A stretch of 64,000 nucleotides of DNA from Longimicrobiales bacterium (GTDB lineage: Bacteria; Gemmatimonadota; Gemmatimonadetes; Longimicrobiales; Gaopeijiaceae). Both the position numbers and the translations under genes were made by a program. Every line of letters starts with the position of its first letter. Position 1 is the stretch's first letter. The notes under the pieces were generated by a model, which was given only the letters and a program-made list of their open reading frames with translations, did not search any database and was not told the DNA's origin. Below, piece after piece: positions 52,911-55,463 of the stretch. The stretch is taken from NCBI GenBank assembly GCA_965116905.1, contig OZ220732.1, positions 3,392,001 to 3,456,000 on the forward strand, written 5' to 3'.

Positions 52911-55463
52911 ATGAGCGACACCGGAGATGCGCTCGCACCAGGGGCCGAGATTGAGGAGTTTGTCGTCGAGCGCGAACTGGGAGCGGGGGGATTCGGCATC
53001 ACCTACCTTGCCTTCGATGTCCGGCTCAAACGCAAGGTAGCCATCAAGGAGTACTTGCCCAGGGACTGGGCTACACGCCGGCCCGATGGATCCATAGGGC
53101 CAAGATCGACAACGGTGACGACCGAATACGAGTGGGGCCTGGCACGGTTTCTGGAAGAGGCAAGGGTCCTTGCGAGTTTGAACCACCCGCAAATCGTGCG
53201 GGTGTATCGCATCATCACTTTGCGCGGCACGGCCTACCTGATCATGGAGTACGTCGAGGGCCGCAGCCTGGCCGATGAACTGGCCGCAGTGGGCTCTCTG
53301 ACGGAAGAGCAGGTCTGGGCAATGCTGAAGTCCCTTACTGCGGGCCTGACCGAGGTCCACGAGTTGGGACTGCTGCATCGCGACATCAAGCCGGCGAACG
53401 TGATGCTGCGCGCCAAGGATTCAACGCCCGTATTGATCGACTTCGGCTCGGCGAGGCAGCAAAGCGGCGCGATTTCGAGGTCGCTGACGGCCGTCTTGAC
53501 GCCGGGGTATGCGCCGATTGAGCAGTACAGCACACAGGGCAACCAGGGACCGTGGACCGATATCTACGCCTTGGGTGCGGTGGCCTATCGAGCCCTTTCG
53601 GGCGAGACGCCGGTCGATGCGACCGAGCGGGTGCGCCGCGACACGTTGCCGGAGTTGAGTGAGGTTACCCCCGAGCCCGTATCTGCGAGGCTGGCGGAGG
53701 CGGTTGGGCGGGCGATGAACGTGGACGAGTCCGACCGCCCTGCGGATCTGGACACCTGGCGCACCCTTCTGTTGAAGGAGCCGGAACAGCCCGAGGCCAA
53801 GCCCGAGCCGGAGACAGGACCTTCGCTGCTGAAGACCAGGCCGTACGCCACGGGCGTCGGCGCGGCGGCGGTGGTGACTGCCTTGGTCGTATTGGCCTTC
53901 GGCCTTTTCGGCACGTCGCCGGAAGAAAGGGCGGCCGAGATAGAAGGGGCCTTGAATCTGGACCTGGAAACCGTACGACTCATCGAGAACGGACTGCTGA
54001 CTGCCGGGTTCGATCCGGGGCCGCCCGACGGCATGCTGGACGCGAGTGCGCGCGACGCATTGCGGGAATGGCAGGCTGCTCGTGGAATCCCTACCACGGG
54101 ATACCTGGATGGTGTCAGCATGACGGCGTTGTTGATTCCGGAACGCGACGCGGAGTTGCAAGTGGCCGCGCGCCAGGCAGAGTTGGAGCGGCAGGCGGAG
54201 GCGGCGCGGCAGGCCGAAGCCGAGCGCCAAGCCGAGGCCGAGCGGCAGGCCGAAGCCGAGCGCCAAGCCGAGGCCGAGCGGCAAGCCGAAGCAGAGCGCC
54301 AGGCCGAGGCGGCACGGCAGGCCGAGGCGGAGCGGCAAGCGGAAGCGGAGCGACAGGCGGAAGCCGAGCGGCAAGCCGAAGCCGAGCGCCAGGCAGAAGC
54401 GGCGCGGCAGGCAGAATTGGAGCGCCAGGCAGAAGCGGCGCGGCAGGCCGAAGCCGAGCGGCAGGCCGAAGCCGAGCGCCAGGCCGAGTTGGAGCGGCAG
54501 GCGGAGGCGGCGCGGCAAGCCGAATTGGAGCGGCAGGCCGAAGCCGAGCTGGAGCGCCAAGCGGAGGCGGCGCGGCAGGCCGAAGCCGAGCGCCAGGCCG
54601 AAGCAGAGCGGCAAGCCGAGTTGGAGCGACAGGCGGAGGCAGCGCGGCAGGCCGAAGCCGAGCGACAGGCAGAGGCAGAGCGCCAGGCAGAGCTGGAGCG
54701 CCAGGCAGAGCTGGAGCGCCAGGCCGAGGCGGCGCGGCAGGCGGAGGCTGAGCGCCAGGCCGAGGCGGCGCGAGCTCTGGCCTCCCGTTCGGATAGTGAC
54801 ATCCTCCTGGTCGTTGGCAACGCTCTGATTGGCACTACGGGGCAGCCCAATTGGCACCCCAACCTGGAGGTTTTCCGGTGGGATGGAGTGGTCGTTGCTG
54901 GCGACCAGGTCACCAGCCTCAGCGCCGAGAACATGACCATGAACGGAGTGCTCCCGGCGGCGCTGGGGTATTTGTCGGGGCTGGAGTACCTGAGTTTGTT
55001 CGGCAACGGAATAAGTGGCCCAATACCGTCCGAGATAGGATCGTTGACGCAGCTTACGGCCATGTACCTGGACGACAATCGGTTGTCGGGCGAGATCCCT
55101 GCGGCACTGGGCCGCTTGACGAATCTGGAAGACCTGTTCATCGACAACAACGAGTTGACGGGGAGCATCCCTCCAACGTTTGGCAACCTGACCAGCCTGA
55201 GGCGCCTGCGCATCGTCAACAACCAACTCTCGGGCGCACTGCCACGGGAACTCGGCGCGTTGACCGGCCTGGAGTTGCTGTATCTGGAAGACAATCAGCT
55301 CTCTGGCAGCATACCGCCGGAATTGGGGCAACTGGGCAACCTGCAGAGACTGCGACTTCAGGGCAATCGCCTGTCCGGATGCATACCGGAGGGCCTGGAG
55401 CGCTTCGAGTCGACCATCAATCCTCAACAGGGAAACGTCAACCTGCCGATGTGCGGCAGATGA
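52911..55463 (+). CDS. Receptor-like Hanks Ser/Thr kinase: kinase - TM - PG-binding - helical stalk - plant-type LRR
   Basis: LGAGGFGITY, VAIKE, HRDIKPANVM, DFG, YAPIEQ, DIYALG; TM GVGAAAVVTALVVLAFGLF; GFDPGPPDG.....R.AL..WQ...G...TG.LD; ~33 AE(A/L)(E/A)RQ hexads; ~7 N.LSG.IP..LG.L..L repeats. Confidence 0.9.
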   Translation: MSDTGDALAPGAEIEEFVVERELGAGGFGITYLAFDVRLKRKVAIKEYLPRDWATRRPDGSIGPRSTTVTTEYEWGLARFLEEARVLASLNHPQIVRVYRIITLRGTAYLIMEYVEGRSLADELAAVGSLTEEQVWAMLKSLTAGLTEVHELGLLHRDIKPANVMLRAKDSTPVLIDFGSARQQSGAISRSLTAVLTPGYAPIEQYSTQGNQGPWTDIYALGAVAYRALSGETPVDATERVRRDTLPELSEVTPEPVSARLAEAVGRAMNVDESDRPADLDTWRTLLLKEPEQPEAKPEPETGPSLLKTRPYATGVGAAAVVTALVVLAFGLFGTSPEERAAEIEGALNLDLETVRLIENGLLTAGFDPGPPDGMLDASARDALREWQAARGIPTTGYLDGVSMTALLIPERDAELQVAARQAELERQAEAARQAEAERQAEAERQAEAERQAEAERQAEAERQAEAARQAEAERQAEAERQAEAERQAEAERQAEAARQAELERQAEAARQAEAERQAEAERQAELERQAEAARQAELERQAEAELERQAEAARQAEAERQAEAERQAELERQAEAARQAEAERQAEAERQAELERQAELERQAEAARQAEAERQAEAARALASRSDSDILLVVGNALIGTTGQPNWHPNLEVFRWDGVVVAGDQVTSLSAENMTMNGVLPAALGYLSGLEYLSLFGNGISGPIPSEIGSLTQLTAMYLDDNRLSGEIPAALGRLTNLEDLFIDNNELTGSIPPTFGNLTSLRRLRIVNNQLSGALPRELGALTGLELLYLEDNQLSGSIPPELGQLGNLQRLRLQGNRLSGCIPEGLERFESTINPQQGNVNLPMCGR
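54177..54773 (+). repeat. 18-bp coding tandem repeat (~33 copies) encoding AE(A/L)(E/A)RQ
   Basis: gcNgaRgcNgagcgNcaR-type units with synonymous variation. Confidence 0.92.

Follow-up and report, generated by a model that had tools for sequence, protein, structure and literature searches.

Results

Organisation of the locus

We analysed a 64,000-nucleotide stretch of DNA, hereafter the window, from a Longimicrobiales bacterium (NCBI GenBank assembly GCA_965116905.1, contig OZ220732.1, positions 3,392,001 to 3,456,000 of the forward strand). The window contains a gene for an 850-amino-acid (aa) protein in which a Hanks-type Ser/Thr kinase is joined to a head of leucine-rich repeats (LRRs), through a transmembrane (TM) helix, a peptidoglycan (PG)-binding domain and a helical stalk. 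The gene lies beside a predicted proton motor and, at most orthologous loci, the kinase is degenerate or gone. Below, G000 is the source genome of the window, other G-numbers are compared genomes and L-numbers are compared loci. The gene and its parts, in window coordinates, are as follows.

52911..55463, + strand: whole gene, kinase-TM-PG_binding_1-helical stalk-LRR head (open reading frame (ORF) of 850 aa; Pfam; motif scan)
52962..53741, + strand: PpkA-type Hanks Ser/Thr kinase domain, aa 18-277 (Pfam Pkinase, E 2e-36; catalytic motifs; PpkA 5hnv)
53853..53909, + strand: single TM helix, aa 315-333, without His or SHLS, predicted N-in, C-out (hydropathy; Arg-rich N-side flanks in orthologues)
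53967..54128, + strand: PG_binding_1 domain, aa 353-406 (Pfam, E 2.7e-9; matched in 41 of 41 loci)
54141..54776, + strand: Glu/Ala/Arg/Gln stalk, aa 411-622, predicted single alpha-helix of ~31 nm (unit count; AlphaFold; heptad test; TRF)
54777..55460, + strand: head, comprising an N-cap, seven plant-type 24-aa LRRs (aa 667-834) and a C-cap with invariant Cys824/Cys848 (alignment of 41 heads; Foldseek)

A preliminary description of the gene, made from the letters alone, had proposed a Hanks kinase, one TM helix, a PG-binding domain, a hexad stalk of ~200 aa and about seven capped LRRs. Pfam, hydropathy, unit count and alignment confirmed each of these; Pfam also finds LRR families in this protein. 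There is one strongly hydrophobic segment only (aa 315-333, Kyte-Doolittle 2.37; the next best scores 1.21), and the PG_binding_1 domain starts 20 residues past it, at the foot of the stalk. The N-terminal side of the TM helix carries 3-7 Arg or Lys residues in orthologues and two in the window copy. The C-terminal side holds the PG domain and the invariant Cys pair. Together, the flanking charges, PG domain and Cys pair would suit an N-in topology, with the kinase predicted to be in the cytoplasm and the LRRs outside. The orthologous hydrophobic segment is ~19-21 residues long and, in many cases, is followed directly by a small residue and Ala.

Misassembly across the repeat had been raised as a possible source of the fusion. 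This was refuted: G311 encodes the same uninterrupted protein (kinase 91% identical) and 39 further loci keep the PG-stalk-LRR order. Hence, the fusion is genuine.

A fixed gene set with a predicted proton motor

The neighbouring genes are as follows.

51886..52887, + strand: predicted exported SH3_3/hairpin protein, 333 aa, candidate head partner (signal peptide; SH3_3; two long helical hairpins; C-terminal beta-hairpin ending in Trp)
55548..56399, + strand: TolQ/MotA/ExbB-like proton-channel subunit (Pfam PF01618; invariant T186, T231, T232)
56427..56936, + strand: FHA-domain protein, likely kinase substrate or reader (Pfam; in 2 of 53 genus genomes, both with an intact kinase)
56941..57771, + strand: PP2C phosphatase (Pfam; close orthologue only in G311 of 53 genomes; distant matches in G035 and G001)
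57791..58666, - strand: vWA protein, predicted motor plug or rotor, whose N-terminal helix is MotB/ExbD-like (invariant Asp17) and whose linker is rich in Pro and Cys (Pfam; Asp17)

We compared 41 loci: 38 from 35 of the 53 genus genomes and three from other genera. Among 235 genomes of other genera, drawn from the family, four had the MotA-like gene; G068, on a short contig, is not among the three fetched. In all 41 loci the gene encoding the PG domain, stalk and LRRs (hereafter the arm) stands directly before the MotA-like gene. The vWA gene is also adjacent, and this holds across two gene orders. The SH3 gene is directly upstream of the arm in 39 loci, the other two being cut by contig ends.

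All 33 aligned rows of the MotA-like family keep residues T186, T231 and T232; the alignment omitted four rows of the first list. The vWA protein has a hydrophobic N-terminal helix, and Asp17 is present in 97 of 97 matches. Its linker (residues ~38-95) is built of Pro-rich repeats of the CPVC type; across loci it measures 58-114 residues and contains 6-12 Cys. It is possibly a disulfide-linked dimeric rod or a metal-binding spacer. The MotA-like profile matched solved MotA weakly (E 0.5-0.6), and a single-sequence search of the PDB with the MotA-like protein found nothing. No tolR or exbD gene was recognised among the scanned window neighbours. Motors of 5:2 stoichiometry, made from TolQ-like and trans-pore-helix (TPH) vWA proteins, were predicted in print in 2025 (PMC12204202). 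Judged by sequence, the neighbouring pair carries the signature of these predicted motors.

The nearest named relatives of the MotA-like gene are in Longimicrobiales genomes, in line with a likely placement of the source in Gemmatimonadota. With the MotA-like protein we fetched 70 loci from named genomes, nine of which are of the window LRR type. The vWA N-terminus was found in 66, a kinase in 66, FHA in 58 and PP2C in 56. The set spans Gammaproteobacteria, Rhodothermales, Acidobacteriota and Latescibacterota, often with trypsin-FHA proteins added; Idiomarina and Pseudidiomarina loci carry the motor cluster. The SH3 protein was present in nine of the 70 loci, solely together with the LRR arm (9/9). 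It belongs to a narrow family (15 representatives at E<=1e-30), and the SH3_3 domain was matched in 45 of 49 members of the upstream-protein family. The model of the protein has a pLDDT of 79.5. Its C-terminus, judged by the beta-signal pattern, suggests that it may be located in the outer membrane.

Probable loss of the kinase in most relatives

The catalytic motifs of the window kinase are all present (GAGGFG at 24, VAIK with K46, HRDIKPAN at 156, DFG at 177, and D217). The closest solved structure is PpkA (5hnv, E 7e-58 over aa 6-287), followed by PknB (4e-25). In sequence, the closest relatives are bacterial cluster kinases, as placed in a kinase tree without plant rows. The intact kinases of the window and G311 are under purifying selection, with a dN/dS of 0.12; this and the other dN/dS values come from eight pairs, by a simple counting method, in DNA of high GC content.

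The preliminary description had made a receptor kinase its main point. The comparison does not support it in that role: the kinase is degenerate or gone in 37 of 39 scorable loci, with the periplasmic part kept. Across the 41 loci the kinase is intact in two (window and G311), a pseudokinase in 10, an N-lobe half in three, absent from 24 and unscorable in two. All 10 pseudokinases are full length. They have lost the VAIK Lys, HRD has become HLD or HLN, and DFG has become GFG or GFA; their dN/dS is 0.24-0.32. FHA and PP2C genes accompany only the two intact kinases. Genome-wide, the FHA query matched two of 53 genomes and the PP2C query four, two of these distantly. The FHA counts are from a protein query; a Pfam FHA search missed the FHA protein of G000 itself and was discarded.

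In an IQ-TREE tree of 99 MotA rows, from which likely duplicate and partial rows were left out, the intact pair is sister to all 39 degenerate loci (SH-aLRT 98; 99 for all 41). A FastTree tree of 90 kinases gave the same split (support 94 and 100). Outgroup kinases keep the Lys and DFG in 68 of 68 cases. Because the intact pair branches next to the whole degenerate clade in both trees, and the outgroups are intact, the intact kinase is probably ancestral. The sequences suggest that catalysis, FHA and PP2C were probably lost once, and that the kinase domain was deleted more than once. Recombination is possible, because the G035 row groups with kinase-less rows even though G035 has a pseudokinase.

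G000 itself has a second copy (L130, C1:1013400-1018100), with an arm gene at C1:1015591-1016943 encoding ~450 aa of TM, PG domain, stalk and LRRs. This copy comprises the SH3/hairpin, arm and MotA-like genes, with the vWA gene on the other strand, and is without kinase, FHA and PP2C. G009 and G022 also hold two loci each. At L099 (G277; 4323-6731, - strand) the pseudokinase-arm frame breaks early in the stalk, and the LRR head is intact in another frame; this is either an assembly error or a pseudogene. L131 (G035) is a lone PP2C gene, ~40% identical to that of the cluster, with no other cluster gene matched within 16 kb. At L132 (G001) a distantly related pair of kinase and PP2C is accompanied by an FHA gene.

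The stalk as a predicted single helix of conserved length

The stalk of the window copy (aa 411-622) is built of 33 units: 31 hexads, one 8-mer and a 12-residue lead-in. The hexads are AEAERQ (16), AEAARQ (8) and AELERQ (7). At the DNA level 27 of the 33 units are distinct, diversified at silent sites, and the longest exact repeat is 42 bp; TRF reports 33.2 copies of 18 bp at 76% match. AlphaFold, run on residues 309-850 without an alignment (mean pLDDT 62.6), gave one continuous helix of ~200 residues at pLDDT ~75-85. A coiled coil was rejected for the window copy, which has no 3.5-residue hydrophobic signal and 5% large hydrophobic residues. Charge pairs at i+3/i+4 are attractive in 66 cases and repulsive in 25. 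With no heptad signal and many such salt bridges, the stalk fits a monomeric single helix, which would measure ~31 nm at 0.15 nm per residue.

Stalk length was measured at 39 loci, G277 and G033 being skipped. It is 133-176 residues (median 149), or ~20-26 nm, at the 37 loci with a degenerate kinase, and 196 and 210 residues at the two with an intact kinase. The window copy is the longest. The ~30-nm stalk of the preliminary description is plausible for the window copy but is an outlier among its kin. The repeat words differ among orthologues despite the held length. The periplasm of E. coli, for comparison, is ~20-25 nm wide; this figure is for E. coli and not for the present organism. In E. 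coli the gap between wall and outer membrane is a few nm. A dependence of trans-envelope proteins on matched length has been shown for RcsF and Lpp (PMC5736177).

These lengths bear on whether the head stays inside the outer membrane. With the PG domain at the wall, 20-31 nm would overshoot that membrane, if the E. coli gap is taken as a guide. The helix might thus run through an outer-membrane pore made by the SH3/hairpin protein and show a eukaryote-like LRR to a host or substrate; the motor would then power export or movement. The C-terminal beta-hairpin and terminal Trp of the SH3 protein, and the 16 ORFs with such LRRs in the genome, would suit this surface-display stalk. Nevertheless, we consider it very unlikely: a folded, disulfide-capped LRR must cross the membrane, and its binding face is conserved. 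In addition, fold searches with the SH3/hairpin protein returned generic helical hairpins only (best Z 9.3 over 93 residues; no usable Atlas match), with nothing to indicate a pore.

The conserved length, the PG-binding foot and the small residue plus Ala after the TM helix in many orthologues could alternatively describe a passive spacer between wall and outer membrane, perhaps freed by signal peptidase in kinase-less forms, with the motor genes merely linked. This seems highly improbable given the adjacency of the motor pair at 41 of 41 loci, across two gene orders, and a hydrophobic segment as long as ~19-21 residues.

A conserved LRR head

The seven 24-residue LRRs start at aa 667 (degenerate), 691, 715, 739, 763, 787 and 811, with caps at both ends. 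The claim that they are of the plant-specific class was borne out. The repeats fit the plant-specific consensus as given in PMC5296948, and the best Foldseek matches to the modelled LRR fold are the plant receptor ectodomains MIK2 and RGFR1. An Atlas search with the ectodomain returned LRR clusters only (<=0.81). Recent transfer of the LRR from plant to bacterium is not supported. In a set of 136 compared by BLAST the best bit scores are bacterial or metagenomic (<=182), against 125-139 for four plant-type receptor kinases. The resemblance to plant receptors is convergent. The homologue search from the LRR region was dominated by long LRR proteins and says nothing about how frequent the architecture is.

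All seven repeats are kept in the 41 aligned heads. The two Cys residues and the exposed D741, R765 and E788 are invariant (41/41), and E740 and R813 are conserved in 40 of 41. The same positions vary among 35 repeats of other G000 LRR proteins, although paralogues are a loose control. The dN/dS of the head is 0.18-0.32.

Such a head might serve a receptor kinase for a foreign ligand, for instance from a host, with the pseudokinase and kinase-less forms acting as co-receptors or decoys like plant receptor-like proteins. Purifying selection on the intact kinase, the FHA and PP2C genes beside it, an LRR fold closest to plant receptor ectodomains and the presence in G000 of both an intact and a kinase-less copy all speak for this. 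Conversely, of the 35 genus genomes that carry the system, 33 have neither an intact kinase at the locus nor an FHA match, which would leave decoys without a signal to tune. The concave face shows conservation and not diversification, and any ligand of a head lying beneath the outer membrane would have to be small or imported. We therefore regard a foreign-ligand receptor as quite unlikely.

A kinase chassis with exchangeable heads

We also examined what the kinase, TM helix and PG domain carry beyond the clade. Among the best 120 homologues of residues 1-410, a PG domain is present in 95 and a TM-like segment in 104. In 30 of them a charged helix reaches at least 60 residues, and in two at least 140. 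The heads are mostly FGE-sulfatase domains, with ankyrin, PPC, PEGA, Sel1 and TonB_C also found. LRRs occur in one of the 120 (P0059), which is a pseudokinase of the window clade. Outgroup kinase tails carry Sel1, ankyrin, FGE, WD40, PDZ and other domains. LRRs were found in none of the 53 tails scanned (of 61; most of the rest were covered as whole proteins), and a metagenome scan gave an LRR match in none of 80 loci.

TssC and TssL(DotU) (PF05943, PF09850) were not found in G000, which is 97% complete, in a search with a positive E. coli control that covered these two type VI secretion system (T6SS) genes. The kinase is closest to PpkA, the heads vary and TssC/TssL were not found; the chassis thus appears to be a PpkA-like kinase with swappable periplasmic heads, linked to a motor and not to secretion. 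The LRR is one of many such heads and, in the set compared, resembles bacterial LRR proteins more closely than plant receptors. Both points count against a receptor kinase as the main theme of the preliminary description.

TonB_C heads occur on this chassis in P0053, whose locus the metagenome scan did not recover. A further ORF (L061, 2-934), lying in a motor cluster and cut by the locus edge, encodes a kinase end, TM helix and TonB_C. At L079 (13397-15250) TonB_C is fused to FGE-sulfatase inside the motor cluster. In Latescibacterota-type loci (L050-L058) the motor, FHA and PP2C core is ringed by collagen-LRR, WD40-LRR and kinase-ankyrin genes. Here, separately from the window type, the motor cluster is paired with LRR proteins that stand on a collagen stalk.

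The preliminary description had likened the protein to TolA. The adjacent TolQ/MotA-like and Asp-helix vWA pair, and the TonB_C heads on the chassis, uphold one part of this likeness; the missing SHLS motif does not. A stronger form would be a TolA/TonB-type force transducer of independent origin, in which the TM helix binds laterally to the TolQ-like pentamer while the stalk pulls an LRR-bound outer-membrane partner. The layout of TM helix, long helix and globular head fits, the arm gene always adjoins the TolQ-like gene, and kinase-less forms have a TolA-like short basic N-terminus before the TM helix. Stalk length is within the range of helical TolA domain II, for which one entry in the supplement of PMC12204202 lists 175 residues, 151 of them helical. 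However, neither SHLS nor any His was found in the 35 TM segments compared (the window and 34 orthologues), and a folded PG domain stands where TolA has a disordered motor box. The TPH-vWA protein has itself been proposed as force transducer (PMC12204202). G000 also has a separate tolQ/TonB_C/pal locus near 2.005 Mb, on which ground the arm was rejected as the housekeeping TolA. On balance, an independent force transducer of this kind appears unlikely.

Genomic surroundings

G000 is a single 4.2-Mb contig with 67.7% GC. In a search of sequencing runs, two contain 0.99 and 0.95 of the sequence words, and one of these may be the source; no RNA run was among those listed, and a sponge run with a small share is no evidence of habitat. 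Its 16 ORFs with LRRs were counted at a threshold of at least two plant-type motifs, and eight of them fall within ~120 kb (C1:3.44-3.56 Mb), which suggests an island of exported repeat proteins. A Big_1/LRR protein (window 58755-60800, - strand) adjoins the operon. The flanks (45891-51397 and 60811-64000, both - strand) encode, by Pfam, an LCAT/PGAP1-like alpha/beta hydrolase, Ig-domain lipoprotein-like proteins, a BNR/sortilin-like propeller, and carboxypeptidase-regulatory-domain and CARDB/Ig proteins. G000 has two Pkinase matches. The one outside the operon (C1:722072-723856, - strand) has an N-terminal extension that seems to resemble the lyase region of class III lanthipeptide synthetases.

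Discussion

A proposed motor-linked arm across the periplasm

Sequence and comparison establish the order of the domains, the constancy of the gene set and the fact that kinase motifs, FHA and PP2C were lost together. We think there is an even chance that the arm spans the periplasm as part of the predicted 5:2 proton motor and grips a fixed, self-encoded partner, with the PpkA-like switch as an optional addition. The TM helix would anchor the protein in the inner membrane, with the kinase on the cytoplasmic side, and the PG domain would clamp the foot of the arm to the wall. A rigid, salt-bridged single helix would then keep the LRR head at a distance of 20-30 nm, close to the outer membrane. 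Here its conserved concave face may bind one fixed partner encoded by the locus itself, most likely the upstream SH3 protein and possibly the vWA domain. So bound, the arm could serve the motor as a fixed point, or as a handle, reaching across the envelope. For P. aeruginosa PpkA, which phosphorylates Fha1, dimerisation on a TagQ/TagR complex of the outer membrane has been proposed (PMC13713981). By analogy, engagement of the heads in the window copy might dimerise the kinase. The FHA protein would then be phosphorylated, motor assembly or activity would be switched as a result, and PP2C would reset the system.

The fixed gene set, the kinase-loss trees, the invariant motor residues, the held stalk length, the conserved head face, the kinship with PpkA and the TonB_C heads on the chassis all count in favour of a motor-linked arm. 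Several observations weigh against it. That genes lie side by side and are retained together is, in close kin, no proof of a physical link. Most outgroup loci have the motor pair without arm or SH3 protein, so that in general the motor can do without the arm. Both trees were made by quick methods without bootstrap. The dN/dS of the pseudokinases is still low, so that their cytoplasmic domain is more than a decaying remnant, and the Ala after the TM helix in many orthologues makes signal-peptidase cleavage of kinase-less forms possible. Finally, stalk and vWA-linker length are correlated in the 37 degenerate loci (rho 0.57), although these kin are not independent, the intact loci go the opposite way and we did not use the correlation as evidence. 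The window copy, with a stalk of 210 residues and a vWA linker of 58, reverses the trend of the other 37 loci, which argues against a simple contact between head and vWA domain.

We also entertain, though doubtfully, a fuller history for the motor-linked arm. A PpkA-type sensor kinase may have gained a plant-type LRR head and a single-helix stalk and then shed catalysis, FHA, PP2C and, last, the kinase domain, to become a TolA-like mechanical arm of independent origin. Together with the TolQ-like/vWA proton motor and the SH3/hairpin protein, which would be a new outer-membrane protein, it would make up a four-part trans-envelope machine not described before. The window would then represent the ancestral, still-regulated state.

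Novelty and significance

The TolQ-like/vWA motor prediction, and bacterial kinases with LRRs, are already known; the LRR arm and the kinase-loss series were not found described. Our literature search, whose coverage took in few subscription journals, returned no description of the LRR-arm architecture, the SH3 partner or the loss series. Plant-specific LRRs in bacteria have been the subject of other work, which the search did not return. The plant-receptor analogy is the weaker half of the case and the motor-linked arm with its loss series the stronger, and the 'bacterial plant receptor' is a convergent look-alike, less surprising than at first sight.

TolQ-like/vWA proton motors have so far been predicted only, with no known output. 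The locus names candidate moving parts, namely a length-conserved arm and a specific exported partner, and offers a minimal four-gene version. Hence, motor output becomes testable in a laboratory host. The loci also form a natural gradation, in which an intact kinase gives way to a pseudokinase, a half kinase and then none, with joint loss of reader and eraser; this illustrates how a signalling protein can become structural.

Comparison with known systems

The window protein partly works as PpkA does and has a build like that of TolA or GltG, yet it lacks defining features of T6SS PpkA, of TolA/TonB and of plant LRR receptor kinases. Plant LRR receptor-like kinases are ordered signal peptide-LRR-TM-kinase, and their kinase belongs to the RLK/Pelle clade. 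The window protein runs the opposite way (kinase-TM-PG-stalk-LRR), as first claimed and now confirmed by Pfam. It also differs from the plant receptors in having no signal peptide, a bacterial PpkA-type kinase and a bacterial N-cap, and its clade has a PG domain, a 20-30-nm stalk and a dispensable kinase. Shared with plant receptors such as MIK2 and RGFR1 are the 24-residue LRR consensus and fold, and one TM helix between LRR and Ser/Thr kinase (PMC5296948).

The T6SS PpkA/PppA/Fha system is alike in having an inner-membrane kinase with a long periplasmic part and a linked FHA protein and PP2C phosphatase. Furthermore, the commonest chassis head, FGE-sulfatase, has the fold of TagR (PMC13713981). 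By contrast, the linker of the window protein is not disordered but helical and includes a PG domain, its head is an LRR, the system is linked to a TolQ-like/vWA motor, and the kinase is usually lost. The Hanks kinases PknB-PASTA and PknD/Mbk-NHL share the order kinase-TM-ectodomain. A P. aeruginosa kinase with LRRs was listed as early as 2005 (PMC1262709). For such kinases with repeat ectodomains, the accessible part of that source does not mention PG_binding_1, a helical stalk, plant-type LRRs or linkage to a motor.

In the predicted TPH-vWA/TolQ motors, as in the window pair, the TolQ-like gene has conserved Thr and the vWA protein carries an invariant Asp in its TM helix. The vWA genes treated in the available text of PMC12204202 are mostly heterologous pairs, unlike the single vWA gene per locus in our 41 loci. 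The words 'kinase' and 'leucine' do not occur in the main text of PMC12204202, and no kinase, LRR arm or SH3 partner is described there. TolA, TonB and Myxococcus GltG resemble the window protein in having a single TM helix, a periplasm-spanning domain and a globular head, and in being encoded beside a motor (PMC12204202, PMC11761067). The window clade departs from TolA and TonB in lacking SHLS, the motif as given in the available text of PMC12204202, and in having a PG domain for the motor box and an LRR for the TonB_C head. GltG, as described in the accessible part of PMC11761067, shares one further feature with the window protein: a cytoplasmic signalling domain, in its case FHA, joined to a periplasmic arm.

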